The position numbers were made by a program, and so were the translations under genes. From NCBI GenBank assembly GCA_043778225.1, contig JAYWGM010000046.1:1-25070 (forward strand): 25,070 nt of DNA, read 5' to 3'. Below are positions 253 to 25,070 of this stretch, piece by piece. Positions within the stretch are counted from its first letter, which is position 1; each line of letters starts with the position of its first letter. Source of the stretch: Deinococcales bacterium. Its GTDB lineage: Bacteria > Deinococcota > Deinococci > Deinococcales > JAAFIG01. Below the pieces are notes generated by a model, which saw only the letters and a list, made by a program, of their open reading frames with translations, searched no databases and was not told the DNA's origin.

Positions 253-1377
253 GTGACAGCAAATCATCATCTTCACTTACCTTCGGGTTGCCTTTGCCTA
301 AATTTACTCGAGGCGCAAAAACCGCTTCTTGAGGCATTGCTGCACATCGGTCTGCGCCAAAACCCCAAGCGTGGATTTTTACTCATCAGCCGCATTCTCG
401 GTAAGCATTTGCCTGTGCAGCCACGACAAATGCTCGAGTCGTACCGACTATTGGCAAGCCAACTCTCCAACGCCACCACGACTTTTATTGGTATGGCAGA
501 AACCGCCACCGCCCTTGGACAAGGCGTTTTTGAAGCCTATGCCGAGCGCCAGCCAAGCGACGTAAGGTACATCAGCACAACCCGCTATCCTTTGGATTTT
601 CCAACCCTGACTTTTGAGGAAACCCATTCACACGCGCCAAGTCATTACCTTCATTTGACCCCAGAAAACAAAGCGTTTTTCTTAAAGACCACCCGCTTGG
701 TTTTGGTGGACGATGAAATTTCGACTGGTCAGACTTTACTGCGCTTGGCTCGAGTCTTTAGCCAGTTTGCACCCAAACTCGAGCAGATTGACTTGGTTTC
801 TTTAACCGATTTCTTGGGGACACAACGCCAAGCTGTCTTGGCACAGTTTCCAGTCCCGACCCATTCGGTGGCACTTCTTAAAGCTGGACTCGAGTTTGTG
901 CCAGACCCAAAATGGCGTGTCTGTCTGCCCTCGAGTCAGCCTCCGTTGCCCCACACCGCGCCGCATGGTTTGGCTCGAGTTGGCTGTGCGCCGCAAGGGT
1001 TTGTTTTGCCACACATCAACGCCCTTGCCAACAAAATCGCGGCTCGAGAAAAAGCAGTTCAGGTCTTAGGCACAGGCGAATTTCAATTTGAACCTTTTTT
1101 ATTGGCATTGGCGCTTGAGCAACTGGGCATAGAAGTCTATTTTCGTGCCACAACCCGCTCACCCATTCTCGAGCATGGCGTGATTCAGCAACGGCTCGAG
1201 TTTCTGGATAATTATGAACAAGGGCTGACAAATTATTTGTATAACCATTTGATGCTGGCGCATATGCCGACCATTGTCTGCACAGAGACACCAAATTTCG
1301 GTTTCTTGCCGCCTGAAATTGGCATGGTCTATTATTGCGATTTTACAAAACTCCCCTTAAAACTGGTTGAGGCATGA
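253..1377 (+). CDS. Ter-cluster phosphoribosyltransferase-like protein with C-terminal TRSP domain
   Basis: ORF 163..1377; GTG at 253 chosen because it follows GGGGGGAG. Motifs RQNPKRGFLLISRILGKH, FIGMAETATALG, FEETHSHA, LVLVDDEISTGQT (PRTase loop), LGTGEF and TTRSPI are typical of ter-associated PRTase_2/TRSP proteins. Confidence 0.85.
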   Translation: MTANHHLHLPSGCLCLNLLEAQKPLLEALLHIGLRQNPKRGFLLISRILGKHLPVQPRQMLESYRLLASQLSNATTTFIGMAETATALGQGVFEAYAERQPSDVRYISTTRYPLDFPTLTFEETHSHAPSHYLHLTPENKAFFLKTTRLVLVDDEISTGQTLLRLARVFSQFAPKLEQIDLVSLTDFLGTQRQAVLAQFPVPTHSVALLKAGLEFVPDPKWRVCLPSSQPPLPHTAPHGLARVGCAPQGFVLPHINALANKIAAREKAVQVLGTGEFQFEPFLLALALEQLGIEVYFRATTRSPILEHGVIQQRLEFLDNYEQGLTNYLYNHLMLAHMPTIVCTETPNFGFLPPEIGMVYYCDFTKLPLKLVEA

Positions 1378-2120
1378 AACGCTTTGTCTTTAGCGACTTA
1401 GACAACACCATCGTGCGTCATTTATCTCGAGTCGGTCAAGAAACCTTTGAAGTCGTTGGCACAGACGAAACTGGGCAAGCCAACACGGTCATGACCACCA
1501 GCGATCTCGAGTTTTACCAAGAAATCAGCCGTTTTGGCAGGCTGATTCCAACTACAGGTCGGTCTATGGCAGCCTATGGGCGGCTTTTTGGCTTACAATT
1601 TGAATCTTGGGTGATCCTCAATCATGGCGCAACGATTTTGACCCCAGACTCGAGCGTGGATACGGTTTGGCTCGAGCGCACCACAAAAATCATGTCCGGT
1701 TTAACGACCGATTTACGGCGGCTTTATCAACATTTGCAGCCCCTCAGTCACCTGTTACTCGAGGATTGCCAATACAGCAACACGATTAAACTGCATTTGG
1801 AACACAATTTGCCTTTGTATATTTCGGTTCGGGCTTCACGCACCATGCCCCAAGCCCACCTCGAGATGCTGCGCCAAAAAATTCTTGAGGTGCTTGGACT
1901 CGAGCCAGACTTTGAGTTGCTGCACACAGGTCGGATTACTTCGGTGATTCCGTGCTTACTTAACAAAAAAGATGCGGTTCTCGAGGTCATGGCGCGTCTT
2001 GGACCAACCGAGACCCTAGGCGTTGGGGATGCCTTAACAGATTTACCATTTATGCGGCTTTGCGATTTTCAACGCGCCCCCGAAAACTCGGAAATTCAAA
2101 GCGCTCAGTGGCGCATATGA
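1374..2120 (+). CDS. HAD-superfamily hydrolase/phosphatase (ter-cluster associated)
   Basis: Motif I FSDLDNT, motif II PTTGRS, motif III/IV K...GVGDALTDLPF; ATGA overlap with the upstream gene. Confidence 0.85.
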   Translation: MKRFVFSDLDNTIVRHLSRVGQETFEVVGTDETGQANTVMTTSDLEFYQEISRFGRLIPTTGRSMAAYGRLFGLQFESWVILNHGATILTPDSSVDTVWLERTTKIMSGLTTDLRRLYQHLQPLSHLLLEDCQYSNTIKLHLEHNLPLYISVRASRTMPQAHLEMLRQKILEVLGLEPDFELLHTGRITSVIPCLLNKKDAVLEVMARLGPTETLGVGDALTDLPFMRLCDFQRAPENSEIQSAQWRI

Positions 2121-3157
2121 GTGGTTTCTCGGGTTCGTATGACCCAAACGATGTGCAGTTTTTACTGCAACCGCAGGTGATGCAAACCGTGAGCATTAGC
2201 GAAAAAGAACGTTTAATTGCCTCTGGACAGCATTATGGGACATTGCTTGGCAGCGAAAATCCACCGAGTCAACTGTACCAAGATTTATTTTGGGCAACCC
2301 TCAAGCGCAATAAAGCCCAAGTTGCCAAAGACGTGCTGGCGCTGGCGCTGTATTTACAAAACCAGCAAAAAACCGTGCTGGTTTCCTTGGCTCGAGGCGG
2401 CACACCCATCGGGATTTTATTAAAACGCACCTTGGCGTTGCTGGGCGTTAAAAGCACCCATTACTCGGTTTCGATTATCCGCGACCACGGAATTGATTTT
2501 GCAGCGCTCGAGTTTATCCTAAAGCGCCACCCCGACTTTAGCCTTGCTTTTATTGATGGTTGGACAGGCAAAGGTGTGATTGCCCGTGAACTCGAGCAGA
2601 GCCTTGGAGTTTTTAATGCCACCCACAACTGCCAAATCTCGAGCCATTTGCACGTTCTGTCAGACCCAAGTGGCTTTGCCGCTACGGCTGCCACGCGGCT
2701 TGATTATCTTTTGCCCAACGCGATGCTCAATGCCACCATTTCGGGCTTGGTGTCGCGCAGTTTTTTAAGTCCACACGGCTTTCATGGGGTGATGGAACTT
2801 TCAGAGTTAGCCCAGTTTGATGTCTCCAAGCCGTACCTCGAAAATATCATGTCTACCATCGCAAGTCTCGAGCAACCAACCCAAGTGATTCATGCTGATT
2901 TGGCGCAGCAAAAAGAAAGTACGGCGCTGCTTTTAGGTATCGCGGCGCAGCACAATGTTGGTCTTGGTTTGGTCAAGCCCGGCGTTGGCGAAGCAACCCG
3001 AGTGCTGTTGCGCCGTCAGCCGAAACTTTTACTGCTCAAAGCTCGTATTCCTGATACGCTACACCTCGAGAACTTAGCGACTCATCTTTGTCCGATTATC
3101 GAAATGGATATACCGTATGCCGCCATCGCCGTGATTCAAAAAGGAGAAACACCATGA
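2117..3157 (+). CDS. StiP-family 'cysteine protease'/PRTase-like protein with C-terminal PELOTA-like RNA-binding domain
   Basis: Start at ATG 2117 (ATGA overlap). Motifs FSGSYDPNDVQFLL, LVSLARGGTPIG, HYSVSIIRDHGID, FIDGWTGKG, LNATISGLVSRS and VKPGVGEATRVLLRR match this ter-linked family. Confidence 0.85.
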   Translation: MSGFSGSYDPNDVQFLLQPQVMQTVSISEKERLIASGQHYGTLLGSENPPSQLYQDLFWATLKRNKAQVAKDVLALALYLQNQQKTVLVSLARGGTPIGILLKRTLALLGVKSTHYSVSIIRDHGIDFAALEFILKRHPDFSLAFIDGWTGKGVIARELEQSLGVFNATHNCQISSHLHVLSDPSGFAATAATRLDYLLPNAMLNATISGLVSRSFLSPHGFHGVMELSELAQFDVSKPYLENIMSTIASLEQPTQVIHADLAQQKESTALLLGIAAQHNVGLGLVKPGVGEATRVLLRRQPKLLLLKARIPDTLHLENLATHLCPIIEMDIPYAAIAVIQKGETP

Positions 3158-3609
3158 GTTTTTGGAATCAATTAAAAGAACAAGCTGGTTCGTTGGCAAA
3201 AAACCTGACCACCGAAGTTGCCAAATTCAAAAACAATGATTTTGCGTCTGCGTCAATGGCGGTCTGTGCCTTGATTGCTGCTGCCGACGGGAGCATTGAC
3301 CCAAGCGAAAAACAAAAAACCACAGCTTTAATCATGAGTAATTCGGTGCTGAGTATTTTTACGCCATCGGACTTAAAAGTCAAATTCGATTTTTTTTGCG
3401 ATAAACTCAATGCCGATTTTGATTTTGGCAAAGTCGAAGTGATTCAAGCCATCGCTAAACTTAAATCCAAGCCCGACCAAGCCAGAGCGATTATTCAAAT
3501 TGGGATTATCATTGGTTCAGCTGACGGTAACTTTGACGTGTCCGAGAAAAAAGCCTTAAAAGAGGCTTGCTTAGCGGTTGGTATCAGCCCAACCGAGTAC
3601 GACCTATAA
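3154..3609 (+). CDS. terB: Tellurite resistance protein TerB
   Basis: ATG 3154 after AAGGAG; ALIAAADGSIDPSEK and IIGSADGNFDVSEK duplicated motifs; ter context. Confidence 0.92.
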   Translation: MSFWNQLKEQAGSLAKNLTTEVAKFKNNDFASASMAVCALIAAADGSIDPSEKQKTTALIMSNSVLSIFTPSDLKVKFDFFCDKLNADFDFGKVEVIQAIAKLKSKPDQARAIIQIGIIIGSADGNFDVSEKKALKEACLAVGISPTEYDL

Positions 3610-3613
3610 GCCT

Positions 3614-4531
3614 ATGCTGCTCAAAACCGTACATCCGTTAGAACTTGGTGCGAGTTTGTATGTTCCCGCGACTCGAGCCGATTTGCTGGCAATCGGCTTG
3701 GGAAAGCAAATCCCGAATCTTCGCAGTCTGATTTATTGCTGCGAAGATTCGATAGAAGAAAATGACCTACCATTGGCAATCAGCAATTTGAGAGCGGTCT
3801 TGCCATTTTTGGATCATCCAATGCTGCGTTTTGCTCGTCCACGCAACCCGCACAACCTCGAGACGATGCTGGAAATGCCGTCTATCGAAAAGCTGCATGG
3901 TTTTGTGCTGCCAAAAGTGACCGCTAATAACCTCGCTGATTACTTAAAAGTGATTCGCCACTCGAGCCGTGGCTTTACCTTTCAGTACATGGTTACGGTC
4001 GAGACCAAAGAAACTTTTTCGGTGCAGCAAATGGAGCATTTGCGCGATTTATTGCTGGCTTCAGAATTGCCGGTGCTTTCAATCCGAATTGGCGGCAACG
4101 ACCTGCTTAATTTACTGGCGCTGCGGCGGCAACGCGGATTGGTGGCTTATAAAACACCCTTGGGTTTGGTGATTCAGCAATTGGTTGGGGTTTTTAAGCC
4201 GTATGGTTTTAGCGTGGCTGCACCGGTTTATGACTTTACCGACGACCCCCAAACCTTGATTTCCGAAGCCTTACTCGATGTGCAGCATGGTTTGGTTGGT
4301 AAAACCGCGATTCATCCGCGCCAGATTGCTTTAATCCAAGCCGCCTATCAAGTTCGAGCCGAAGATGTGATGGCTGCTACAGCAATCCTTGCGCCAAACG
4401 CCCCAGCCGTTTTTCGGATTGGCGACCAGATGTGCGAACCCGCTACCCACCATCAGTGGGCAAAAAGCATTTTGCGTCAAGCCCAGATTTATGGTGAATT
4501 GCCAGCCCGTCTCGAGGAACAGTATGCCTGA
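3614..4531 (+). CDS. HpcH/HpaI aldolase/citrate-lyase-like TIM-barrel C-C lyase (ter-cluster associated)
   Basis: LGASLYVPATR, CCEDSI, GFVLPK, IRIGGNDL, GLVGKTAIHPRQI and MCEPATHHQWA motifs; ATG 3614 chosen within ORF 3578..4531. Confidence 0.85.
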   Translation: MLLKTVHPLELGASLYVPATRADLLAIGLGKQIPNLRSLIYCCEDSIEENDLPLAISNLRAVLPFLDHPMLRFARPRNPHNLETMLEMPSIEKLHGFVLPKVTANNLADYLKVIRHSSRGFTFQYMVTVETKETFSVQQMEHLRDLLLASELPVLSIRIGGNDLLNLLALRRQRGLVAYKTPLGLVIQQLVGVFKPYGFSVAAPVYDFTDDPQTLISEALLDVQHGLVGKTAIHPRQIALIQAAYQVRAEDVMAATAILAPNAPAVFRIGDQMCEPATHHQWAKSILRQAQIYGELPARLEEQYA

Positions 4532-5303
4532 ATTGATAAGCCCAGCCATGAAAGTTGTCGAAACAAAAGTGATTGGTGGCACAACCATCGAAATCATCGA
4601 ATACACCGAATTGCGCGGCGCGGGTTCGCCAGCCGAGATTTACTACCGCGAAAAACTTGGGATTCGCTTAAAAACCATTTGCATCACCCTCAAAAACAGT
4701 TCTTTTACTTCCGAGCCGGGAGCGCTGCATTACCTGCGAGGCAAAGTCGAAATGAAATCCGAAGGTGGCGGCGGGGTTGGTGGCTTTTTGAACCGTGCAA
4801 TTCAGAGCATGGCAACTGGCGAAACGATGTACAAGACCGAATACAAAGGCACGGGTTTAATTTATCTCGAGCCAACCTATAACCATTACATGATGCTCGA
4901 GATAGACAACGACGAGATTGTGACCGATAAGGGCGCATTTGTGGCGGCGGCTGGCAATTTTTCGTATCTGGTCAAAAAACCCGATTCGGTGGTTTCGGGT
5001 TTACTGGGTGGTGAAGGTATTTTTCAGCCGATGGTGCGTGGCAGTGGAATTGTTATTTTGCAGACCCCAGTCCCACAAGCCGAATTGCAAACCGTGGTTC
5101 TCGAGAACGACCAATTGGTGGTGGATGGTAATTTTGCAGTGGCGCGGACTGGGCAAATCAGTATGTCGGTGCAAAAATCCCAGAAGTCTTTGTTGGGTTC
5201 AGCCCGTGGTGGCGATGGCATGGTCACGGTTTTTAAGGGCAGTGGTGTGGTTTGGTTAGCCCCGACGGCAAGATTGTACCAACCGAGTATACTGTCACTC
5301 TAA
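4524..5303 (+). CDS. AIM24-family protein
   Basis: ATG 4524 after GAGGA; EPGALHYLRG, ATGE..YKTEYKGTG.IYLEP, GGEGIFQ, VDGNFAVAR and GDGMVTVFKGSG.VWLAP repeats. AIM24 is a known ter-cluster companion. Confidence 0.85.
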   Translation: MPELISPAMKVVETKVIGGTTIEIIEYTELRGAGSPAEIYYREKLGIRLKTICITLKNSSFTSEPGALHYLRGKVEMKSEGGGGVGGFLNRAIQSMATGETMYKTEYKGTGLIYLEPTYNHYMMLEIDNDEIVTDKGAFVAAAGNFSYLVKKPDSVVSGLLGGEGIFQPMVRGSGIVILQTPVPQAELQTVVLENDQLVVDGNFAVARTGQISMSVQKSQKSLLGSARGGDGMVTVFKGSGVVWLAPTARLYQPSILSL

Positions 5304-5315
5304 AAGGAGGTTTGT

Positions 5316-6530
5316 ATGCAGTTACAACGCGGTCAACGAAGCAAACTGGCAGATTTAGGCTTGGCTCAGCAGTTTTTGGTGGCACTCGAGGTTGCGGGTG
5401 GCGGTCTGAGTTTTGACACCGCTTGTTTTGGCTTGGATGCCCAAGAGCGCTTATCCAACGATGCCTATATGATTTTTTATAATCAAGTTGCTTCGCCCGA
5501 CCATGCGATTATTTACAGCCAAACTCGAGAACACCTCTACACCATTAACTTGGCGGTTTTAAGCAGCAGCATTCAAAAATTGGTATTTACGATCACCGCC
5601 CCAGAACCTCACAGCCTAACCATTGTCAGCCAAGGCAGCATTGTGATTCGCCACTTGCATGGCGCAGAGGTGGCTCGTTATGCCTTTACGGGTAAGGATT
5701 TTACAGCCGAAAAAGCCGTCATGGGACTCGAGATGTACTTAAAAGACGGCGTATGGCGTTTACACGCTTGTGGGCAGGGCTTCGCGGGTGGTTTAGATGC
5801 CCTTGTGACCCATTTTGGTGGCGAAGTGGCTGCTCCCGCCCCGACTCCCGTACCCGTCAATGTTCCACCGCCCATCCAAGTGCCAGTAGCTGTACCGCCG
5901 CCGCCACCGCCTTCACCACCCAAGCCCAATGTTTTGCTGACCAAAGTGACGCTCGAGAAACGCGGTGAGGTGGCTAAAATTTCACTGCGTAAAGAAGGCT
6001 CGAATGCGATTCATATTAACCTCAATTGGAATCAGCAAGCCAAACGCGGTTTTTTAGGCATGACCACGCCGGCTGCCGACCTCGATTTGGGCTGTATGTT
6101 TGAAATGCTCGACGGCAACAAAGGCGTGTTGCAAGCGCTGGGCGATAAAATGGGGCGCAAGGGCGAATATCCATTTATTTATGTCGATAAGGACGACCGT
6201 AGTGGCGCTTCGGCAAACGGCGAGAACCTCTTTATCGAACGCCCAGATTTAATCAAACGGGTGATGGTGTTTGCCTATATTTATGAAGGCGCAAAAGCTG
6301 GTTTTCAGGGCGTGGAAGGTCGGATGAGCATGACCGACCCAGCTGGCAACGAAATAAAACTAGCCCTCAATAACCCAGATGCGCGTTTGACTTTTTGCTG
6401 TGTGGCATTGGTACAACAAGTCGGTGGCGAAGTTTCGATTCGCAAGGATGAAAACTATTTTCAACACCACGGACAAGCCGATGAGCATTATGGCTTTGGC
6501 TTCAAATGGAGCGCTGGCAGCAAAGATTAA
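5316..6530 (+). CDS. terA: TerA-like tellurium resistance protein (TerD-like N domain, Pro-rich linker, TerA-type C domain)
   Basis: SD AAGGAGG. N domain YMIFYNQ...[14 protein letters not shown], linker APAPTPVP...PPPPPPSPPKP, C domain INLNWNQ, DLDLGCMFE, LQALG, DKDDRSG...GENL, YGFGFKWSAGSKD. Confidence 0.85.
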   Translation: MQLQRGQRSKLADLGLAQQFLVALEVAGGGLSFDTACFGLDAQERLSNDAYMIFYNQVASPDHAIIYSQTREHLYTINLAVLSSSIQKLVFTITAPEPHSLTIVSQGSIVIRHLHGAEVARYAFTGKDFTAEKAVMGLEMYLKDGVWRLHACGQGFAGGLDALVTHFGGEVAAPAPTPVPVNVPPPIQVPVAVPPPPPPSPPKPNVLLTKVTLEKRGEVAKISLRKEGSNAIHINLNWNQQAKRGFLGMTTPAADLDLGCMFEMLDGNKGVLQALGDKMGRKGEYPFIYVDKDDRSGASANGENLFIERPDLIKRVMVFAYIYEGAKAGFQGVEGRMSMTDPAGNEIKLALNNPDARLTFCCVALVQQVGGEVSIRKDENYFQHHGQADEHYGFGFKWSAGSKD

Positions 6531-6561
6531 GAAAAGGTCTCTTGACTTTGAAGATATACCC

Positions 6562-6610
6562 GACAGGCATGGTCGCCTGTCACTACTGTAGGCGAACCCC
6601 CATGTTCGCC
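6562..6610. repeat. Two back-to-back GTAG-type REP-like palindromes
   Basis: Minus strand GTAGTGACAGGCGACCATGCCTGTC (6586-6562; stem 6562-6568/6575-6581) and plus strand GTAGGCGAACCCCCATGTTCGCC (6588-6610; stem 6591-6597/6604-6610). Confidence 0.55.
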
Positions 6611-6687
6611 CTGTGACAAACCATGATTTTATGACTTTATTAACACGTTCTAAGCCCTCTCGAGCAAGACCTATTTAGGGAGTTACC

Positions 6688-7263
6688 ATGGCAATTACAC
6701 TCAGCAAAGGCGGCAATATCTCGCTCTCCAAAACCGATCCAACCCTGACCAAACTGATTATTGGCTTAGGCTGGGACACTCGAGCCACCGATGGACAAGA
6801 TTTTGATTTGGATGCCAGTGCATTTTTAACCAACGCCAGTGGCAAGACTCGCGGCGACAACGACTTTATTTTTTATAATAACCTGACCACCCCAGATGGC
6901 GTGACCCACACCGGCGATAACCGCACTGGGGCTGGCGACGGCGACGACGAACAAATTAAAATTGACCTGACCAAACTGCCTGCCGATGTGGCTTCGGTTT
7001 TTATTACGGTCACAATTCACGATGGAGAAACGCGCCGTCAGAACTTTGGGCAAGTCCGCAACGCTTTTGCTCGAGTCGTCAATGAAGCCACCAATGCCGA
7101 AGTTGCCCGCTACGATTTGGGCGAGGATTTCTCGACCGAAACCGCCGTTATTTTCTGTGAAGTCTACCGCAATGCCGCCGAATGGAAATTCCGAGCCGTC
7201 GGGCAGGGCTTCGCGGGTGGCTTAAACGCGCTGGTGCGTCATTATGGCTTAAATGCGGGTTAA
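6688..7263 (+). CDS. terD: TerD/TerE-family stress protein
   Basis: [56 protein letters not shown] and [22 protein letters not shown]. TerD versus TerE cannot be resolved by eye. Confidence 0.93.
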
Positions 7264-7271
7264 AGTGAGCT

Positions 7272-12535: not shown

Positions 12536-13200
12536 GCTTGTTCCTGTTCGCTGACCACAATCTGACCAATCATCTGACCATGCCCAAGTTCAACCACCCG
12601 CTCGAGAAAAGTACGCCACGTGGTGGTTTGTAAGCCTTTGGCAAGCCCAAGTTTATCGTAAGTTAAATCCACAATTTGGTCTCGAGAACGCGCCCATGAG
12701 GTAATCCCAAAACGCAGAATTCCAGAACGGGTTGTGGTCGCAGCAAAACGAATTTTTCCAGCTTCAGGATGCCCTTGGAGCGTCACAAAACTAAAAGCGG
12801 TCTCGGTGACTTCAATCACCCGAACTTTACCATTCCAAGGACCAAAAATCGTGATTTCAAATTCGTCACCTAACCTTAAAACCCAACTCGAGCCTCGAGA
12901 TTTTTCAAAAGCAGCCAGTTCTTCGGGGCTAAGTTGCTCGAGATGAGAAAAAACTTGGCGCATCAGTTCGGACGGCGACAGTTGAGTTCTAAAAACCACT
13001 TCGTAAGACCTCCCAAGTAATTTGCCAAAACCGTCTCCCTCAAGCTGAAGCTGGTCATCTATCAAGTGGCTTGGAATTTCAGGCGAGGCTGGTAAAGGTT
13101 TTCGGCGCGGACGGGCTGGGTTAAATACTTGTTTTATGATGCCACGAAAACGCGCCAGCCAACCTTCTCGAGCCGTTCTGGGGGTGGTGTTCTGGCGCAT
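12532..13200 (-). CDS. DUF1990-like protein (second paralog)
   Basis: GPWNGKVRV, FSFVTLQGHPEAG.I.F and ITSWARS motifs; start ATG 13200 or TTG 13218. Confidence 0.7.
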   Translation of the reverse strand: MRQNTTPRTAREGWLARFRGIIKQVFNPARPRRKPLPASPEIPSHLIDDQLQLEGDGFGKLLGRSYEVVFRTQLSPSELMRQVFSHLEQLSPEELAAFEKSRGSSWVLRLGDEFEITIFGPWNGKVRVIEVTETAFSFVTLQGHPEAGKIRFAATTTRSGILRFGITSWARSRDQIVDLTYDKLGLAKGLQTTTWRTFLERVVELGHGQMIGQIVVSEQEQA

Positions 13201-14197: not shown

Positions 14198-14836
14198 GTG
14201 CTGCTGTCTGTGGATTGGGATTTTTTTTCTGGGTGTCTCGAGCATACTTTTGATGCGCCAATTTGGGGGACTCGAGACACCGATTTCGACCGCATAGAAG
14301 CATGGCAACTCCGCGCCGCAAAACGCAATGGCAATTTAAGTACCGATTTTCCGTTGCTCGAGGATTGGCACTGGCTGCTGCAATTTCAGGGGATTCCGAC
14401 CTTGGCTACTGTCAGTCATGCCGATGCTTACGGCTTACTCGAGCAGCTTTCAAGTAAAAGTGTAACTAACCTAGATTCGCACCACGATTTATACAGTAAA
14501 AGCGGCGACCCGACTCGAGTTCGGGCTGGGAATTGGGCTGGGTTAGCCCTAGAGCATGGTTTAATCCAGTCTTATACTTGTGTTTACCCGCCTTGGCACG
14601 AGCATATTCGAGTGGCAGAAGGGTACGACCTTGAGCGCACACGGTCTGAACTTGGCTTGAGATTTTTAGAGACTCGGCTGGAGCGCACAGCCCTAGCCGA
14701 CCTCGAGCTTGGTGGCATCAGCCATATTTTGTTGGTGCAGTCGCCAGCTTGGACCAACCCAGAACACGACCCGTTTTTCCTCGAGTTATGCGCTGGGCTG
14801 CGGGCAGATTTTCTTGAGGTGCCGCTAAGACGCTGA
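14198..14836 (+). CDS. Arginase/UPF0489-like metallohydrolase-fold protein
   Basis: Start re-called at GTG 14198 (VLLSVDWDFF); SHAD, NLDSHHDLY, GNWAG and QSPAWT metal-ligand-like motifs. The upstream part of ORF 13943 overlaps the P1 peptidase and is not credible. Confidence 0.65.
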   Translation: MLLSVDWDFFSGCLEHTFDAPIWGTRDTDFDRIEAWQLRAAKRNGNLSTDFPLLEDWHWLLQFQGIPTLATVSHADAYGLLEQLSSKSVTNLDSHHDLYSKSGDPTRVRAGNWAGLALEHGLIQSYTCVYPPWHEHIRVAEGYDLERTRSELGLRFLETRLERTALADLELGGISHILLVQSPAWTNPEHDPFFLELCAGLRADFLEVPLRR

Positions 14837-15478
14837 CCCAAGCGCCTCGAGTTGCCGTACCCACGCATCAAAATGCAGGCACTTTTGACGCATAACAGCC
14901 AAGGTTATCTGCTCGGCAATGTCTAAACCGTGCAGCACTTTTTGGTATTGATGATAAAGAACCAAGAGCCGTTTAGAAGGCGCAGTTTGTAAACCACCAT
15001 TGATGTGTTCTGGTGTTTCAAACTGTGAAACAATTTTCTCGAGTTCAGAAAGCCGAGACGACTGATTTTTAAGTGCCTTACAAACCTCTTGATCTAAAAT
15101 ACTTGGCGCACTAAACAACAACGCTTCAAATTCGTAGGCTTGAATGTAGGGAATAAATCGCCAATCAGCAATGAAATCTTTTAAGGCATTCTCGAGATGT
15201 TGCAACCTAGACTCGAGTTGCTGGGGCTGCGAATCAAAACCAGGAAACGATTTATGTAATCCAAACAAATCAAACATGGTCGAGACATACCCGTGATGCA
15301 ACTCAAGACGAATACTCTTTTCGACCCGAACAAACGAGGTCACACCACCACTTTGCTGTTTTGAAGTGGGTACTTTAATCGCTTTAGCGAACACACCAAA
15401 TTGTCTAAGGTGAGGTCTGAGAATACGCTTTACAAACTGTTCTTCACAGTCTCCCTCGGCAATAATCGTTAAATTCAA
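14825..15478 (-). CDS. DUF4276-family protein (TOPRIM-like)
   Basis: IIAEGDCEEQFV, STMFDLFG, FIPYIQAYEFEALLFS, PEHING...APSKRL and CLHFDAW; TTGA overlap with the upstream ATPase. Confidence 0.8.
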   Translation of the reverse strand: MNLTIIAEGDCEEQFVKRILRPHLRQFGVFAKAIKVPTSKQQSGGVTSFVRVEKSIRLELHHGYVSTMFDLFGLHKSFPGFDSQPQQLESRLQHLENALKDFIADWRFIPYIQAYEFEALLFSAPSILDQEVCKALKNQSSRLSELEKIVSQFETPEHINGGLQTAPSKRLLVLYHQYQKVLHGLDIAEQITLAVMRQKCLHFDAWVRQLEALGSAS

Positions 15479-16629
15479 GGCTTACCACCCAAGACATTCT
15501 TGAGCCATAAATCACCAACACTGTAATCCTCGAGCCAGCCCTCGAGTTCGGTTGCATCCAAGCGTTTGACCAATGTTTCTTCGGAATCTTCCTCGCGTTC
15601 GACAACCAAAATTTGATGCGGCTCGAATTGATTCAAAAAATCGACGCTTTGGGTTGCCACAATAATTTGGCTTTCAAACGAAGCCTGACGAATTAAATCG
15701 GCAATGAGTTGCAATGCTGTTGGGTGCAAACCAAGTTCTGGTTCATCAATAATAATTAAGGGTGGAGGATTAAACAGCAGTAACACTGCTAATGCAATAA
15801 ATCGCAATGACCCATCCGATAAATGGGCGGCTGAGAGCAATAAATCCTGCCCCAAATTGCGATACTCGAGCCGAATCTGATTTTCATTAAAGGGGTCTGG
15901 ACGAAGAACAAAGCAATCAAAACGAGGAACAACACGACGAACAAGACTTTGAAAAAAGCTAAATTGCTTGGGTTGTTTTATAGAAAATAAGTAAATCCAA
16001 GCTGATAAATTTTCTCCCATACCCCGCAAATTTACATTGTCATTGATAAGCGATGGCTGTCTAATGGGAGACATAGGAGATGTGTCACAGAATTTATAAA
16101 TTCCCAAATTCCCAAATAACTCTGAGATTTTTTTGCTATGCTCTACTAAAATGTTTACTGTTGCTGTATCTCTTACAGGTGAGTAAATTTCTTGTTTTTG
16201 ATCGTCAAAATTAAAGAGGGTTAGTTTTTGTCCAGACTTTGACTCGGCGTTAGAAATTTGAGAAATCTCAACTTGACCACCAGAAATATAATCTATTTGG
16301 GTGGCGTGAGTTAGCTTCTTCTTATCTGCTAGTGTAATTTTGATTTTGATTTTTGAATTTAGCTTGACTCCTCCATAAAAAAGTGAATCATTACCGCCTA
16401 GACCATTAAAAAATTGTCTAAAAGATGAATGGTTTCGTTCAGACAAAAGGTATACCGAAAGTAGGATATTACTTTTGCCTGCGCCATTCGCTCCAATTAA
16501 AACGTTAATATCACGCAGTTCGATTTTGGCGTGCTTAATCCCTCGAAATCCTGTAATCTCGAGGGTATCTATCTTGATGCGCTCAGGCAGATTCTCGAGC
16601 GTTTTTGCTTGGATTGCAGGGCTGCTCAT
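15475..16629 (-). CDS. Soluble ABC-type/AAA_21 ATPase (COG4637-like)
   Basis: ITGFRGI, Walker A GANGAGKSN, signature LSDGSLRF, Walker B/D-loop IIIDEPELGLHP, ATQS and C-terminal YSVGDLWLKNVLGG. ATG 16629 is preceded by TACAAT (16642-16637). Confidence 0.88.
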   Translation of the reverse strand: MSSPAIQAKTLENLPERIKIDTLEITGFRGIKHAKIELRDINVLIGANGAGKSNILLSVYLLSERNHSSFRQFFNGLGGNDSLFYGGVKLNSKIKIKITLADKKKLTHATQIDYISGGQVEISQISNAESKSGQKLTLFNFDDQKQEIYSPVRDTATVNILVEHSKKISELFGNLGIYKFCDTSPMSPIRQPSLINDNVNLRGMGENLSAWIYLFSIKQPKQFSFFQSLVRRVVPRFDCFVLRPDPFNENQIRLEYRNLGQDLLLSAAHLSDGSLRFIALAVLLLFNPPPLIIIDEPELGLHPTALQLIADLIRQASFESQIIVATQSVDFLNQFEPHQILVVEREEDSEETLVKRLDATELEGWLEDYSVGDLWLKNVLGGKP

Positions 16630-16670
16630 GGTTGTTATTGTAGTTGAATTTAATCTCAACACCAAACTGT

Positions 16671-18047: not shown

Positions 18048-18054
18048 GGTAATA

Positions 18055-18074: not shown

Positions 18075-18092
18075 AAAAGTCAACACCACCTC

Positions 18093-18121
18093 TTGACAGT
18101 TGGCGTATCGAGGGCTAGGCT
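18093..18121 (+). promoter_or_regulatory. Sigma70-type promoter of the acyl-CoA operon
   Basis: TTGACA (18093-18098), 17-nt spacer, TAGGCT (18116-18121). Confidence 0.75.
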
Positions 18122-18124
18122 AAA

Positions 18125-18146
18125 ACCAACCAAATACTTGTTTGGT
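18125..18146. promoter_or_regulatory. Palindromic operator overlapping the predicted transcription start (KstR2-like)
   Basis: ACCAACCAAATACTTGTTTGGT is 18/22 self-complementary. Its core ACCAAATACTTGTT is one mismatch from the actinobacterial KstR2 motif AnCAAGnnCTTGnT. Confidence 0.65.
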
Positions 18147-18171
18147 CTGACTCGAGCAGACTAGGAATTTT

Positions 18172-18792
18172 ATGAGTGAACCCACACCGCGTATAGCGGA
18201 GATACCCATATCGCGCCGTCATGACTTAATCGCTATCGCCGCCACCGAATTTGCGCGGCGTGGCTACCGTGCCACCACGATGCGCCATATTGCCGATGCG
18301 GCTGGTATTCTAGCGGGCAGTTTGTACCACCACTTTAAGTCCAAAGAAGAAATTCTGCGCGAAGTGATGCTTGAAAGTACAACCCAGTATGTGATTGAAC
18401 TTGAGGCGATTGCTACAAGTCAAAGCTCGAGTTTAGAGAAAATCGAAGCTGCTATTATTCATCGGCTCGAGTTGTACCAACAACAAGGAATGTCTTTGGG
18501 CGTGGTTTTACAAACCGATAAAACCACTTTGCAAGAACCGATGTTCCTCGAGATGCGCCAGCTTGGTCGGCGCATAGATACAGCTTGGGACAGCATTCTC
18601 GAAGAAGGTAAACAAAACAGCAGTCTGCCCGCCGACCTCGAGACACGAGCGATTACTTATGCCATTGTCGGGATGCTCAATTGGGCGCATCGCTGGTACA
18701 ACCCCGATGGGCGACTCGAGCCAAAAGCCTTGGCTCGAGTGTGGGCAAATATGGTGCTAAACGGGATACTTTCCCCAAAAGGTCAATCATGA
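18172..18792 (+). CDS. TetR-family regulator, KstR2-like
   Basis: FARRGYRATTMRHIADAAGILAGSLYHHFKSKEEIL HTH and GMLNWAHRWYNPDG C-terminal motif. Confidence 0.9.
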   Translation: MSEPTPRIAEIPISRRHDLIAIAATEFARRGYRATTMRHIADAAGILAGSLYHHFKSKEEILREVMLESTTQYVIELEAIATSQSSSLEKIEAAIIHRLELYQQQGMSLGVVLQTDKTTLQEPMFLEMRQLGRRIDTAWDSILEEGKQNSSLPADLETRAITYAIVGMLNWAHRWYNPDGRLEPKALARVWANMVLNGILSPKGQS

Positions 18793-19775
18793 GCATTGGG
18801 ATTTTGGCTACCGGTATTTATCTGCCCGAGCAGCGCATGACGGCTTTGCAGATTGCTGATGCTTCTGGGTTGCCGCTCGAAGTGGTGCGGCACAAACTGG
18901 GGATTACCCAAAAACCAATTCCAAGTGCCACCGACCACAGCAACGCGATGGGTATTGCGGCAGCAAAAATCGCGCTTGAGAAAGCCAAGCTCGACCCCCA
19001 AGAACTGGATTTAATCATTTGTATCACCGAAGAACACAAGGAATTTCCAGTCTGGACTGCTGGTATTGATTTGGCGCACGCCATTGGTGCAACGCGGGCT
19101 TGGGCATTTGATGCCGCGCAAAAATGTGGTTCGTTTGTGCTGGCAGCTAAACTTGCCAAAAGCCTGATGCTCGAGGACAACAGCCTAAAAACCGTGCTGA
19201 TTGCAGGTGGCTACCGAAATTCGGACTTAATTGAGTACACCGACCCCAATGTGCGTTTTATGTACAACCTTGGCGCAGGTGGTGGGGCTGCGATTTTACA
19301 ACGTGGTGCGCCACATTTGCTGCTTGGCTCAAGCTTTATCACCGATGGCGAATTCTCGCGGGATGTGATTGTGCCAGTTGGTGGCACGTGTGCGCCACTG
19401 ACCCCCGAAAATCTGCACCAATACCGTCTGCAAGTGCCAGACCCAAAAGGCATGAAAGCGCGGCTTGAAGCAAAAAGTTTGGACAATTTTGTGCGGGTGG
19501 TGCAAGAAGCGGCGCAGCGCAGTGGCTTTGAAGCCATCGACTACCTTGGTATTCTGCACATGAAACCGAGCGCCCACAAAATCATTCTCGAGCGACTTGG
19601 GTTAGGCAGCCAACAAGCCATTTATTTATCCGATTATGGACATATCGGGCAAATAGACCAGTTGCTTTCGCTCGAGTTAGCCTTGGAGCGCGGTTTAGTA
19701 CAGATTGGCTCGAGGATTATTTTAGCTTCGGCTGGGGTTGGTTATGTTTGGAATGCAGTTGGGGTGCAGTGGTGA
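18789..19775 (+). CDS. 3-oxoacyl-ACP synthase III (FabH)-like thiolase-fold enzyme
   Basis: ATG 18789 (ATGA overlap); GIYLPE, AFDAAQKCGS (Cys), GAGGGAAIL, ILHMK, YGHIGQ and SAGVGYVW. Confidence 0.85.
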   Translation: MSIGILATGIYLPEQRMTALQIADASGLPLEVVRHKLGITQKPIPSATDHSNAMGIAAAKIALEKAKLDPQELDLIICITEEHKEFPVWTAGIDLAHAIGATRAWAFDAAQKCGSFVLAAKLAKSLMLEDNSLKTVLIAGGYRNSDLIEYTDPNVRFMYNLGAGGGAAILQRGAPHLLLGSSFITDGEFSRDVIVPVGGTCAPLTPENLHQYRLQVPDPKGMKARLEAKSLDNFVRVVQEAAQRSGFEAIDYLGILHMKPSAHKIILERLGLGSQQAIYLSDYGHIGQIDQLLSLELALERGLVQIGSRIILASAGVGYVWNAVGVQW

Positions 19776-21886
19776 TTTTCTGGCGTGGAGCTTGGATTAA
19801 CCGAGATGCCTTTGAAGCACGAATCTCAAAGCTGAGTGCTTTTTTGCAATCTGTTGGCGTGGTAACTGGTGAGCGGGTGGCAATACTGGCGCAAAATCAT
19901 CCGATTCATCTCGAGGGTATCGAGGCAGCGCGGCGTTTTGGCTGGATTCATGCACCACTCAATTATCGTTTGCCGCCGCTCGAGCTTGCGCCGTTGGTGG
20001 CGTATATCGCGCCAAAAGTGCTGATTTATGGCGCAGAATTTGAAGCTCAGGCACTTGAAGCAAAACGCCAGAGCCAAGAAGTACAACTTTTTAGGCTCGA
20101 GGACATCGAAAGGCTTGATGGTCTTGAGTCGCCATCGCAGCAACCAAGTCGCCCTGAAGATACAATTATGCTGCTTTTTACGGGTGGTACAACTGGCACA
20201 CCCAAAGCTGCCCAGATTACTCGAGCCATGTTTGAAACAAATATTGCCGATACGATTGCAGCTTGGCAACTGAGCCGCCAAGATTGCACTGTGGTTGCTA
20301 CCCCAATGTTTCACGCTGGGGTCAATGCGCTGGCTACGCCTTTGCTCGAGCTTGGTGGGCGGGTGGCGATTCTCGAGAAATTTACGCCAGAAGGCTATTT
20401 AGAAATGGTTCGGGATTCTGAGGCGACGCTTTTATTTGCTGTGCCGACGATGTTTCAGATGTTGATTGAATCGGCGGCGTTTACCAATTTTGACTTCTCG
20501 AGCATTAAATACGCGATTACTGGCGGTAGTCCATGCCCCAGTCGGGTGCGAAATGCTTTTGCGGCTAAGGGCGTGCAATTCAAATTGGGCTACGGCATGA
20601 CCGAAGCGGGGGTCAATTGCTTTACCCAAAATCTCGAGCTTGCCCAATTAAAACCAAACAGTGTTGGGTTTCCAATGCCAAACCTCAAAGCAAGATTGCA
20701 CAACGAAAACGGTGCAGAAGCCAACTCAGGCGAACTGATGCTGTCGGGCAAGCAAATTATGGCTGGTTATTGGCAAAAACCACTCGAGACTGCCCAAGTC
20801 TTGCGCCTGATTGATGGCGAAATGTGGTTGCTGACCGGCGACCTCGCTACCCGCGACGCAGATGGTGATTACAGCATTATTGGACGCAGCAAAGAAATGA
20901 TTATTTCGGGCGGCGAGAACATTTATCCGCTCGAAATCGAACGCGCCATAGACGAACACCCTAGCGTCCTTGAGTGCGCTGTTTTGGGTGTACCCGATGC
21001 CCAGTGGGGCGAAGTGGCACTGGCGGTGGTGGTGACTCGAGTAGCAATTTCGCTCGAAAATCTACGCGAGTTTTTGCGGCAGCGTTTGGCAAACTATAAA
21101 ATTCCAAAGCATTATGTCTTTATGGCAGAACTTCCCAAAAGTGCGGCTGGCAAAATCTTAAAAAGTGTCTTGAGAAAAGATTTTATCAAAGCTCGAGAAC
21201 TGGTTTTGCTGCATGGCAATTATGCCTCGGGGCGTTGGTGGCAGGATTTTTTTGGTTATTTTGCGCCAACCTTGCCCGGCTTTGCAGCTACCCCAGCCCT
21301 CGAGCAAACATCCATTGCGACCCTCTGCGATTGGCTCGAGCAAAAAATGGCGCATCTTAAAAAGCCCGTGCTGCTGGGGCATAGCCTTGGTGGAGTCTTG
21401 GCGCTCGAGTTAGCAGCTCGCCACCCGCAAAAATATGCTGCTTTGATTTTGGTCTCGAGTCCGAGCCTGACGGGTTTTGTCCACAATCCAGCCGGTGACG
21501 CAATCAGGGCGCAATTGCCACACAACCGTGCGTTGCTCGAGCAAATTTTTAAGCTGCAAAGCCCAAGTTTGCGCGAGCATTCTGGCGAACGCTGGGAAGG
21601 AATTCTTGATGATGCCCAAAGTTTGCCATTTGAAATTGGCAATGGTTTAGCCATTGAACTTGGACGTTGGAATCGGCTCGAGTCAGCCGATGTGTTGGCA
21701 CAGCTTCCGACCCTGATTCTTGGCGGACAAGCCGATATGCTGGTCACACCAGACATCACCCAAAGGCTGGCGGCACAACTGCCACAGGCTCACCTCGAGT
21801 TACGTGAAGGTGTTGGGCATTGGTTGCCACTCGAGCAGCCCGAGTGGTTTCAGGCTCGAGTACAAGCATTTTTGGAGGCTCTATGA
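19772..21886 (+). CDS. Acyl-CoA synthetase (AMP-binding) fused to a C-terminal alpha/beta hydrolase
   Basis: GTGA overlap at 19772. Ligase motifs FTGGTTGTPK, PMFHAG, GYGMTE, TGDLA, GRSKEMIISGGENIYP and LPKSAAGKILK continue in frame into LVLLHGN, GHSLGG, GQAD and GVGHW. Confidence 0.88.
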   Translation: MIFWRGAWINRDAFEARISKLSAFLQSVGVVTGERVAILAQNHPIHLEGIEAARRFGWIHAPLNYRLPPLELAPLVAYIAPKVLIYGAEFEAQALEAKRQSQEVQLFRLEDIERLDGLESPSQQPSRPEDTIMLLFTGGTTGTPKAAQITRAMFETNIADTIAAWQLSRQDCTVVATPMFHAGVNALATPLLELGGRVAILEKFTPEGYLEMVRDSEATLLFAVPTMFQMLIESAAFTNFDFSSIKYAITGGSPCPSRVRNAFAAKGVQFKLGYGMTEAGVNCFTQNLELAQLKPNSVGFPMPNLKARLHNENGAEANSGELMLSGKQIMAGYWQKPLETAQVLRLIDGEMWLLTGDLATRDADGDYSIIGRSKEMIISGGENIYPLEIERAIDEHPSVLECAVLGVPDAQWGEVALAVVVTRVAISLENLREFLRQRLANYKIPKHYVFMAELPKSAAGKILKSVLRKDFIKARELVLLHGNYASGRWWQDFFGYFAPTLPGFAATPALEQTSIATLCDWLEQKMAHLKKPVLLGHSLGGVLALELAARHPQKYAALILVSSPSLTGFVHNPAGDAIRAQLPHNRALLEQIFKLQSPSLREHSGERWEGILDDAQSLPFEIGNGLAIELGRWNRLESADVLAQLPTLILGGQADMLVTPDITQRLAAQLPQAHLELREGVGHWLPLEQPEWFQARVQAFLEAL

Positions 21887-24540: not shown

Positions 24541-24567
24541 ATTTCCCACCAATAAAAGCAGCCGAGG

Positions 24568-24576
24568 TGCTACCCT
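24568..24576 (+). promoter_or_regulatory. Extended -10 of a leaderless ftsH transcript
   Basis: TGcTACCCT lies 6 nt before ATG 24583, with no SD in between. Confidence 0.6.
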
Positions 24577-24582
24577 AGCAAG

Positions 24583-25070
24583 ATGTTACTGCGCCTACTG
24601 ATTACGATTCTTCTAAGTCTGGGCTGGTCGTTGGCGGCAACGCCTTCGGTCAGCACTTTTTTGAGTGAATTGCGCTCGGGTGGAGTTGCCAAAGTCGAAA
24701 TCTCGCCCAATGGCAGCGCTCGAGTGATTCCCAATAAAGGTCGTAGCGTTTTTAGTACCGAGTATCGCGTCCAATTGATTGTTGATAAAAGTTTATTTGA
24801 TGCACTCGAGTCGGCTCGAGCCAAATTTGATACCAATTACAGTGTTGTGCGGGCTTCACCAACGGGCGATTACATCATGATTGGTATTCAGGTGGCTGGC
24901 TTGGGCATTTTGGTGGTGATGCTGGTTTTACTGATTCGCTCGCGTTCGGGCGGTGGCGGTGATAACGCGGGTGGAGCAATGAGCTTTGGGAAATCTCGAG
25001 CTAAACAAATCGAGAAACCAAGCACCCAATTCAAAGATGTAGCTGGTTGCGACGAAGCCAAAGAAGAACT
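24583..25070 (+). CDS. ftsH: ATP-dependent zinc metalloprotease FtsH, 5' part (runs off the window; absent from the ORF track)
   Basis: Hand translation: MLLRLLITILLSLGWSLA...second hydrophobic segment...GGAMSFGKSRAKQIEKPSTQFKDVAGCDEAKEE, the hallmark entry into the FtsH AAA domain. Confidence 0.9.
   Translation, partial: MLLRLLITILLSLGWSLAATPSVSTFLSELRSGGVAKVEISPNGSARVIPNKGRSVFSTEYRVQLIVDKSLFDALESARAKFDTNYSVVRASPTGDYIMIGIQVAGLGILVVMLVLLIRSRSGGGGDNAGGAMSFGKSRAKQIEKPSTQFKDVAGCDEAKEE

Follow-up and report, generated by a model that had tools for sequence, protein, structure and literature searches.

CTCGAG as a hyper-abundant palindrome in a Deinococcales family and in two phage contigs

Relation to described DNA words

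For three decades, highly iterated palindromes (HIPs) have resisted explanation, and almost all described cases belong to a single phylum. The cyanobacterial palindromes HIP1 (GCGATCGC) and alternate HIPs represent the closest known system for the word that is described here, the hexamer CTCGAG, which is spread densely over a 25,070-base contig of a Deinococcales bacterium (contig C46 of the source assembly G000; this whole stretch is called the window). Like HIP1, CTCGAG is a short palindrome in tens-fold excess that occurs in all frames as well as between genes, is conserved among relatives, and extends over a whole lineage. HIPs are characterized by a 15- to 300-fold palindrome excess with hundreds to thousands of copies per Mb, by occurrence in all frames and in non-coding DNA, by independence from codon usage, and by above-average site conservation, and each of these properties is found for CTCGAG. 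The differences lie in the word (6 bp, 67% GC), in the phylum (Deinococcota), and in the density, which amounts to ~6,200 per Mb compared with 300-2,700 per Mb for the HIPs tabulated in the accessible part of Elhai (PMC4390886). CTCGAG is not one of the words listed there, nor is it mentioned anywhere else in the 2015 paper. In addition, no methyltransferase common to the CTCGAG genomes was found (six representative genomes, five Pfam families), and CTCGAG is also present in phage contigs and in spacers of clustered regularly interspaced short palindromic repeats (CRISPR), whereas a literature search for HIP1 together with cyanophage gave no report on phage carriage.

HIP1 is described as conserved and periodic at 10-90 kb, and it was argued to be kept for chromosome structure (Xu, Lawrence and Durand 2018, PMC5861425, accessible sections). 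It was also linked to natural transformation, possibly as an uptake watermark, in the available text of bioRxiv 10.1101/2024.09.10.611283 and PMC13756078; the latter states, in the part at hand, that HIP1 methyltransferases failed a correlation test, and the former, likewise in part, raises an analogy to Chi. Full-text literature searches yielded no published hyper-abundance of CTCGAG in Deinococcota or elsewhere, and one preprint names CTCGAG solely as a methylated motif in other phyla. CTCGAG adds an independent second example of this class, in the Deinococcota and with another word, at a much higher density (~6 sites/kb). It lacks a feature that underlies the leading HIP1 models, as no shared cognate methyltransferase was found, and it reaches phage DNA, in which proteins were altered as well.

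The uptake signal sequences (USS) of Pasteurellaceae and the DNA uptake sequences (DUS) of Neisseriaceae are 9-12 nt long, not palindromic, and occur about once per kb. According to the accessible text of Findlay and Redfield 2009 (PMC2817400), the frequencies of the peptides encoded by uptake sequences are roughly doubled, the sequences are rarer in well-conserved sequence, and in USS species the signal is missing from imported genes or genes without homologues in relatives. CTCGAG resembles these systems as a family-specific word with thousands of copies that goes along with a raised frequency of its encoded peptide, is lacking in imports, and is rarer in conserved sequence; comEC is present. 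It differs in being palindromic, 6 bp long, free of a flank signature, about six times denser, and at host level in phage DNA. For a word of the USS/DUS type, mobile or strain-specific DNA would be expected to lack it, but here it is carried by 10 of 43 CRISPR spacers and by phage contigs at 9.0 and 6.2/kb.

Chi sites are read by RecBCD or AddAB and are oriented and non-palindromic. By analogy, CTCGAG may be seen as an over-represented, self-marking word whose bearer DNA would be favoured by an intracellular machine. Chi is far rarer and oriented, however, and RecC was found in none of the 31 genomes searched here (AddAB was not searched for). Very-short-patch repair (Dcm + Vsr) raises CCWGG and lowers CTWGG in E. 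coli, and is similar in that a repair bias enriches the palindromic target of a methyltransferase; it differs in that Vsr is found in 0 of the 19 family genomes, the deamination neighbours of CTCGAG are ~2-fold enriched, and the effect is orders of magnitude larger. The word is also the target of XhoI/PaeR7I-type restriction-modification systems, and the XhoI nuclease family (PF04555) is found in 0 of the 19 family genomes.

CTCGAG as a DNA-level signal of the lineage

The source genome comprises 4,029,277 bases in 107 contigs (48.7% GC), only 13 kb of which are multi-copy sequence. A crude set of 3,531 open reading frames (ORFs) of at least 100 aa covers 90% of it. The closest relatives of a window protein come from metagenome-assembled genomes (MAGs) of Deinococcales and Trueperaceae. 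The family that shares the trait was represented by 19 genomes of five genera, all of them MAGs that are 57-94% complete and for which densities were calculated from rounded genome sizes. A further 132 Deinococcales genomes from outside of the family (151 in total) served for the comparison within the order, and presence/absence searches covered the 19 family genomes and 12 outgroup genomes (31). Six family genomes were taken as representatives (G000, G006, G010, G011, G012, and G013; one per genus beside G000), five of which are incomplete MAGs; G013 is a single contig and G010 is 91% complete.

The window contains 162 copies of CTCGAG (one per 155 bp, 6.5/kb), in line with the original prediction, which had been made from the sequence alone and counted about 160 copies at one per ~155 bp. 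The excess is 27-fold over a uniform expectation of 1/4096, close to the ~25-fold estimated at that time, and 53-fold over dinucleotide-preserving shuffles (n = 100), which gave a mean of 3.04 copies (standard deviation (sd) 1.92, maximum 10) and never reached 162. Genome-wide, 24,877 copies were counted (one per 162 bp, 6,174 per Mb), 29-79 times as many as the 870, 315, 339, and 396 copies predicted by site-masked Markov models of orders 0-3. The maximal-order Markov model gives an observed/expected ratio of 1.16, which is uninformative because its pentamer counts consist of CTCGAG itself. CTCGAG is the top hexamer of the genome, and the next ranks all overlap it. It is 4.7 times as frequent as CAAAAA (5,347 copies), the commonest hexamer free of such overlap, and no second hyper-abundant word emerged in G000 after CTCGAG had been masked. 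The flanks show no preference, since no base exceeds 0.31 at any neighbouring position.

All 107 contigs carry the word at densities of 3.99-10.6/kb, and 8-kb segments of the genome hold 4.4-7.9/kb between the 5th and 95th percentiles. Positions 1269-20000 of the window are matched letter for letter by Logan contigs that were built independently from two public runs. This agreement excludes an assembler artefact, not a library artefact, because both runs may be source samples. The contigs of the two runs contain no variants on the window, as far as can be judged on the contig level only, and run X3 contributes short unlike pieces only. The enrichment is thus neither confined to this contig nor an assembly artefact, two doubts that had been raised together with the prediction.

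In G000, 13,183, 4,498, and 4,653 sites lie in frames 0, 1, and 2, respectively, and 2,543 lie outside of ORFs. Coding DNA has 6.18 sites/kb, and non-coding DNA of each length class has 6.07-6.21/kb. A within-gene synonymous shuffle, which keeps the protein and the codon usage, leaves 2,386 copies (sd 29, 10 shuffles) of the 22,402 coding sites in the genome, and 15.4 copies (sd 3.6, maximum 25, n = 200) of the 153 observed in the ORFs of the window; the earlier statement that amino-acid or codon preference does not explain the word holds on both scales. Leu-Glu pairs are spelled CTCGAG in 13,221 of 19,147 cases (69%) compared with 7% predicted from the product of CTC and GAG codon use. This occupancy is flat along genes (0.68-0.70 in each decile). 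Of the positions at which the protein permits the word, 69%, 56%, and 42% are occupied in frames 0, 1, and 2. GAGCTC, which consists of the same two codons, has 24 copies in G000 and is near-absent throughout the family (0-25 copies in 15 of the 19 genomes, G000 among them). The enrichment almost certainly arises at the DNA level, extends over the whole lineage, and is driven by a real force.

Some of the one-letter neighbours of CTCGAG are enriched as well. Transitions and outer-position variants exceed expectation 1.5-2.5 times, whereas inner transversions stand at 0.6-1.1. The neighbours that would arise by deamination are not depleted (observed/expected 2.06 for CTTGAG/CTCAAG and 1.89 for TTCGAG/CTCGAA).

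The effect extends to proteins. The observed/expected ratio of Leu-Glu is 2.32, 2.21, and 2.13 in the family genomes G000, G006, and G013, compared with 1.30 and 1.44 in the outgroups G147 and G021, and that of Glu-Leu is 0.92-1.07 in all five genomes. Because of the outgroup baseline of 1.30-1.44, the Leu-Glu excess is to be read as ~1.6-fold and not as 2.3-fold. Across the aligned columns of orthologs, Leu-Glu occurs 368 times in G000 and 229 times in G147 (64 pairs), and 144 times in G000 and 106 times in G021 (21 pairs); the corresponding numbers for Glu-Leu are 139 against 159 and 47 against 71. The outgroup residues at positions where G000 has a CTCGAG-coded Leu-Glu are mostly conservative, e.g., Val-Glu, Leu-Asp, Leu-Gln, Leu-Arg, and Leu-Lys. 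Judging from these alignments, the proteins of the family were changed.

All 19 family genomes from the five genera contain 4.3-6.8 CTCGAG/kb, which bears out the HIP1-like lineage property that had been proposed; the GC content ranges from 44% to 59% in three sampled family genomes. The 132 other Deinococcales genomes have 0.01-3.4/kb. This range is made up of 0.29-2.6/kb in family f2 (37 genomes), 0.01-0.27/kb in f3 (36 genomes), in which the word is depleted, 0.7-2.9/kb in f4 (23 genomes), and 0.6-3.4/kb in f5 (36 genomes). In GC-rich relatives, the preference for the codons CTC and GAG explains much of their 1-3 sites/kb. In 59 kb sampled from G126 (f2, 47% GC), CTCGAG is the top hexamer at 2.5/kb, and the top octamer in 20 kb sampled from G059 is GCTCGAGC. 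Based on these small samples, the trait may reach past the family in a weaker or extended form.

The turnover of sites was followed between G000 and G006, which belong to the same genus and share 47% identity at third codon positions (176 reciprocal best pairs, ~200 kb of codon alignment). A CTCGAG of G000 is kept at the aligned place in G006 in 41-54% of cases compared with 16-17% for all other hexamers, so that the site conservation named as a check in the original prediction is indeed raised. At shared Leu-Glu pairs, the share of CTCGAG in G006 is 78% if G000 also has the word and 54% if G000 uses another spelling (odds ratio 3.0), and Leu-Glu pairs that are unique to one genome are spelled CTCGAG in 67% (G000) and 63% (G006). 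Because of these shares, most of the agreement between the two genomes is ascribed to a high steady-state occupancy, which arises anew in either lineage on its own. The comparison indicates that the force creating CTCGAG is still active. The site density per gene is correlated between orthologs of the two genomes (rho 0.60), and it is weakly related to protein conservation (rho -0.14, p = 0.06).

The placement of the sites is Poisson-like. On the local scale and over all 107 contigs, the distance from one site to the next has a coefficient of variation of 1.00, which rules out a regular spacing; the Fano factor rises from 0.88 at 500 bp to 1.0 at 1 kb and 1.5 at 5 kb. At short range, the pair correlation g (1.0 = uniform) is 0 at a spacing of 6 bp, about 0.8-0.95 at 7 bp (the upper value applies to counts normalised by mod-3 classes), 0.2-0.6 at 8-20 bp, and 1.0 at 60 bp and above; a spacing of 7 is the sole one below 21 bp without depletion genome-wide. 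A spacing of 6 never occurs; such a pair would make the avoided word GAGCTC. The deficit also holds at fixed protein: the fraction of Leu-Glu spelled CTCGAG is 0.78 if the nearest other site is 100-250 bp away, 0.30 at 8-11 bp, and 0 of 111 at 6 bp. A protein footprint as the cause of the deficit at 8-20 bp was rejected, since the deficit is confined to coding DNA (g 0.24-0.51 compared with 0.63-1.07 in non-coding DNA). As it is limited to coding DNA and persists at fixed protein, it is read as an avoidance of hairpins with a 6-bp stem within ORFs. The fit to hairpin energy is imperfect, as spacings of 8-9 are the most depleted yet do not give the most stable hairpin.

Constraint and recent import lower the density, and both effects had been suggested as a check of the enrichment. 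G000 contains 19 site-free stretches of at least 1.5 kb, all of them at 31-47% GC and several with restriction-modification genes. The 68 predicted tRNAs carry 6 CTCGAG compared with 32.5 expected. The 23S rRNA is not in the G000 assembly, and that of G013 was used instead; it has one CTCGAG in 2,933 nt, which is located inside a lineage-specific insertion, compared with 18 in the 3-kb flanks. A ribosomal-protein contig of G000 stands at 4.0 CTCGAG/kb. Among ORFs of at least 600 nt, 43 of 2,536 lack CTCGAG (Poisson expectation 10.8) and are candidates for recent imports. Four of the six tRNA sites lie in one tRNA cluster (C19:9937-12769; Ser, Cys, Glu, and Met among them), which may be a tRNA array of mobile origin; 68 tRNAs is a high number for the genome size of G000.

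Phage DNA, candidate genes, and possible mechanisms

The CRISPR array of G000 (C80:17-2691) consists of 44 repeats of 29 nt that do not contain CTCGAG. The word is present in 10 of its 43 spacers (1,399 nt in all, 48% GC), compared with 7.3 expected at host density and 0.29 at 1/4096 (Poisson P about 9e-13). The spacers have no match in the rest of the G000 assembly (the longest match is 22 nt), and no protospacers of the array were found in GenBank phages or plasmids, nor one for part of one spacer in IMG/VR or metagenome contigs. The repeat was found in none of the 18 other family genomes.

A phage contig rich in the word, L508 (the same as L434), was obtained from a scan of IMG/VR for three clustered CTCGAG that was biased against GC-rich DNA. 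It encodes a large terminase (phrog_2, E 1.6e-23) and shows weak matches to small terminase, portal, and head-morphogenesis proteins. Sixty IMG/VR contigs that encode relatives of this terminase were compared. L508 itself (6,102 bp, 49.4% GC, terminase identity 100%) has 55 sites (9.0/kb), and L509 (7,264 bp, 46.6% GC, terminase 71%) has 45 sites (6.2/kb); GAGCTC is missing from both. L517 (21,221 bp, 62% GC, terminase 62%) has 52 sites (2.45/kb) and 5 GAGCTC. The 57 others (terminase 46-60%, 758 kb in total, 44-70% GC) hold 165 sites with a median of 0.08/kb and a maximum of 1.12/kb, and 0-14 GAGCTC each. In L508 and L509, an order-1 model predicts 0.6-0.7 CTCGAG, the 45 and 42 coding sites fall to 4.7 and 5.2 in the synonymous shuffle, and Leu-Glu is spelled CTCGAG in 18 of 25 and 20 of 34 cases, respectively. 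All six CTCGAG sites in the L509 terminase are common with L508. At one shared site, both phages have Leu-Glu and 9 of 10 relatives have Arg-Glu; at another, the relatives have Lys-, Asp-, Gln-, Arg-, or Ala-Glu in place of the Leu-Glu of the phages. By these comparisons, the proteins of L508 and L509 were thus altered to carry CTCGAG, which reaches host-level density or above in only these two members of the phage lineage. The word-rich phage contigs appear to infect the family. An earlier triple-site scan of IMG/VR had given, among the matches listed, mostly GC-rich phages or tandem repeats; whole-record counts for five such records included an ambiguous 36.9-kb record with 100 CTCGAG and 1 GAGCTC at ~66% GC.

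A responsible gene was not visible in the window, as already stated in the original prediction, and none was found here either. G000 is rich in DNA methyltransferases, with 8 matches to PF07669, 6 to PF00145, 6 to PF01555 (several of them weak or broken by stops), 4 to PF02086, and 8 to PF02384, some of which overlap. Some 25 further palindromes of 6 bp are nearly missing from the 4 Mb of G000 (e.g., GGCGCC 3 copies, AGGCCT 1, GACGTC 1, GGGCCC 1, GTGCAC 9, CTTAAG 8). Restriction-modification genes are numerous in G000, and the many methyltransferases fit the near-absence of many of these words. Clusters of PF00145, PF01555, PF07669, and PF02086 proteins at 35% identity or above span at most 3 of the 6 representative genomes. 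When PF02384 was added and the threshold set to 25%, only superfamily-level clusters resulted, which reach at most 5 of the 6. This negative result covers five Pfam families in incomplete MAGs, so that a hidden or non-orthologous enzyme is possible, and specificity is unreadable from sequence. A 650-aa methyltransferase with a TaqI-like specificity domain (TaqI_C, PF02086 match) and a 501-aa gamma-class methyltransferase were rejected as family-wide enzymes, as they occur in only 3 and 2 of the 31 genomes, respectively. G013 has no PF01555 match, and the one C5 enzyme that it encodes shares no more than 36% identity with any of G000; G010 has no C5 methyltransferase match.

Among the 12 outgroups, one (G021) encodes an XhoI-family nuclease, which is convergent with a PF01555 methyltransferase (G021:C1:69000-81000 (L138), 5897-7794). 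The latter was discarded as a candidate for the family, given that its best G000 relative shares ~27% over the full length. G021 does not avoid CTCGAG (1.8/kb), and 46% of its Leu-Glu pairs are spelled CTCGAG compared with 25% from codon use. Vsr was searched as PF03852.

A host system inside the cell that reads CTCGAG and favours the DNA bearing it is tentatively preferred here as an explanation, with a chance just short of even. CTCGAG would then be a lineage-specific DNA watermark, and a force on the hexamer itself would fix it wherever constraint permits. Such a force would act on all DNA that persists in these hosts, chromosome as well as phage. A putative host protein system would read the word during DNA processing; recombination or mismatch repair might settle differences in favour of CTCGAG, or a nuclease or recombination machine might be held in check by it in a Chi-like manner. 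Point-mutation alleles that gain a site would be retained more often than those that lose one, and the density would settle at an equilibrium near 6 sites/kb. It would be lower under strong purifying selection (rRNA, tRNA, and ribosomal-protein genes) and where two sites would give a hairpin within an ORF or a pair would give GAGCTC, and DNA freshly imported from distant donors would start without the word. We infer the reader protein and the manner in which the bias is produced, and neutral biased repair and a selected self-mark are not separable within the model. The equal density of coding and non-coding DNA and the phage density at or above that of the host speak for a selected self-mark, and the stochastic placement and the sheer number of sites speak for a neutral drive. 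The results from phages and spacers favour a process within the cell over one at its surface; combined with the Poisson-like placement, they also speak against a role in chromosome architecture.

Several points weigh against such an intracellular reader. No reader protein was found, so that the central step is a deduction, and the missing RecC excludes a RecBCD-type Chi reader among the 31 genomes (AddAB was not searched for). A pure mutational or repair bias predicts denser non-coding DNA, which is not seen. The 1.5-2.5-fold enrichment of neighbours is explained by the decay of numerous existing sites just as well as by conversion. L508 and L509 are short (6-7 kb) and could be resident prophage remnants that ameliorated with the chromosome, and the spacers, which come from one 43-spacer array, could derive from related chromosomes or plasmids instead of phages. 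A further-reaching version of the preferred explanation, which is unlikely, is a self/non-self licence by word density in place of chemical modification: a host machine would spare or recombine only CTCGAG-rich DNA. The chromosome and the phages would be forced to recode their genes, and even to replace amino acids, in order to bear this password, and phages would ameliorate to the word of their host much as restriction is otherwise evaded. If CTCGAG truly marks self DNA, it would represent a new principle of bacterial self-recognition.

Of the functions that the original prediction had offered, an uptake signal fits much of the anatomy of the word. In a drive of the USS/DUS type, competence would prefer CTCGAG-bearing DNA, so that word-bearing conspecific alleles replace others. 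The ~1.6-fold Leu-Glu level over the outgroup baseline parallels the peptide increase of uptake sequences, the word is absent from imports (the 19 site-free stretches of 31-47% GC), well-conserved sequence such as tRNA and 23S rRNA has fewer sites, and ComEC is present in 18 of the 19 family genomes. The recent link of HIP1 to transformation points in the same direction (accessible text of bioRxiv 10.1101/2024.09.10.611283 and PMC13756078). However, ComEC is not discriminating because it is also present in all 12 outgroups, the word is just 6 bp long, palindromic, and without flank signature, and phage contigs and CRISPR spacers hold it at host density or above; the uptake drive is weakened by the latter and is rather improbable. 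The phage data do not speak against a HIP1-type methylation model, as methylation would reach phage DNA too. An orphan methyltransferase would mark CTCGAG or its TCGA core, and methylation-dependent repair would make or maintain the sites. The model can draw on the many methyltransferases of G000, one of them with the TaqI-like domain, and on the finding that every HIP genome has a predicted cognate methyltransferase (Elhai 2015, PMC4390886, as far as its accessible text goes). But no ortholog group from the five Pfam families searched spans the six representatives (at most 3 of 6 at 35% identity or above), the TaqI_C and gamma-class enzymes are confined to 3 and 2 of the 31 genomes, G013 lacks PF01555 and G010 a C5 match, the partner of the G021 XhoI nuclease has no close G000 relative, Vsr and the XhoI nuclease were found in none of the 19 family genomes, and the neighbours CTTGAG and TTCGAG show enrichment instead of depletion. 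Methylation-directed repair, which had been proposed on the basis of the word alone, is improbable in view of these results.

A binding site for a chromosome-organising or nucleoid protein, which would be maintained by selection on chromosome structure, could account for the equal density of coding and non-coding DNA, the small variation between 8-kb segments (4.4-7.9/kb), and the conservation of CTCGAG positions beyond that of other hexamers, and conservation with a 10-90 kb periodicity is reported for HIP1 (PMC5861425, accessible sections). The Poisson-like placement without regular spacing, a short-range exclusion that is limited to genes and unlike a protein footprint, and the word in phage DNA and spacers make the proposed organiser very unlikely. 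The suggested recombination or deletion site did not find support either: 74 of 582 indel edges, regarded as recombination scars, lie near CTCGAG (12.7% compared with 10.3% background, p = 0.066), a weak association. An origin in codon usage, in the composition of proteins or bases, or in an artefact of assembly, finally, has practically no probability and is rejected by the shuffles and the non-coding density. It could invoke the ratio of 1.16 from the uninformative maximal-order model and the 1-3 sites/kb that codon preference alone gives in GC-rich relatives. Against it stand the 2,386 of 22,402 sites left by the synonymous shuffle, the Leu-Glu spelling (69% compared with 7% predicted), the 24 copies of GAGCTC from the same codons, the equal density in non-coding DNA, the 19 separately assembled genomes that share the trait, and the letter-for-letter agreement of independent contigs from two runs with the window.

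The combination of no shared methyltransferase and phage carriage narrows the mechanisms for this class of signal towards an intracellular reading of the word. As a tool, CTCGAG density flags imported DNA in genomes of the family and links uncultured phages to family hosts.

Features of the window and minor observations

The sites of the window and the neighbouring features are collected in Table 1. The five example sites of the original prediction (307, 749, 930, 6659, and 18151) were all confirmed in their frames, residues, and intergenic places.

Table 1. Sites and features of the 25,070-base window
Feature	Position	Strand	Description
CTCGAG field	307..25000	both gene strands	162 sites
Sites by frame 0/1/2 of the ORF set			91/35/26; + genes 100, - genes 52
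Sites outside the ORF set			10; seven within 14181-14824 (alternative ORF omitted there)
Frame-0 site CTC GAG	307..312	+	Leu-Glu; in PRTase_2/TRSP gene 163-1377
Frame-1 site GCT CGA GTC	749..754	+	Ala-Arg-Val; in PRTase_2/TRSP gene 163-1377
Frame-2 site CCC TCG AGT	930..935	+	Pro-Ser-Ser; in PRTase_2/TRSP gene 163-1377
Intergenic CTCGAG	6659..6664		between TerD-domain genes 5316-6530 and 6688-7263
Doublet CTCGAG-N-CTCGAG	12887..12899		spacing 7
Lower-GC stretch with HEC-01A/B pair	14825..16665	-	bin 16001-18000 = 43% GC; CTCGAG at, e.g., 15038, 15191, 15212, 15529, 15541, 15865, 16558, 16594
Intergenic CTCGAG	18151..18156		between divergent TetR genes 17439-18089 (-) and 18172-18792 (+)

The gene pair at 14825-16665 lies in the lowest-GC part of the window and fits the PADLOC candidate defence system HEC-01. 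HEC-01A is an AAA_21/OLD-like ATPase (E 2.6e-100), and HEC-01B belongs to DUF4276 (E 1e-70). The stretch bears CTCGAG sites and is therefore not a site-free recent island. Positions 163-9567 harbor a tellurite-resistance-like stress cluster, which comprises PRTase_2/TRSP, a HAD hydrolase, StiP with a PELOTA domain, a C-C bond lyase, three TerD-domain proteins (one of them fused to a trypsin-like peptidase), and a TerC/DUF475 membrane protein.

Copies of the first ~100 bases, 96-100% identical, occur in G000 at the ends of many contigs and also at internal positions (C84, C21, C85, C61, C69, C24, C20, C64, C28, C23, and others) as well as in relatives of the genus, and two more small repeat families are located at 104-182 and 203-260. 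The contig depth at positions 1-260 is 47-212 compared with 13-30 elsewhere, and this part resembles a short dispersed element (MITE- or REP-like) at which the assembly is interrupted. Within the TerD gene 6688-7263, the contigs of both runs include a form that skips 75 bases (6957-7033) and has a depth above the local one, and several low-identity pieces from the runs map to 6895-7833. Paralogues or related organisms are the probable source of the skipping form and the low-identity pieces.

The 23S rRNA of the outgroup G147 (f2; L350) contains two CTCGAG that are 17 nt apart, at alignment columns 418 and 435, where the other four lineages have different sequences. Judging from their positions, both copies may form the two strands of one helix.

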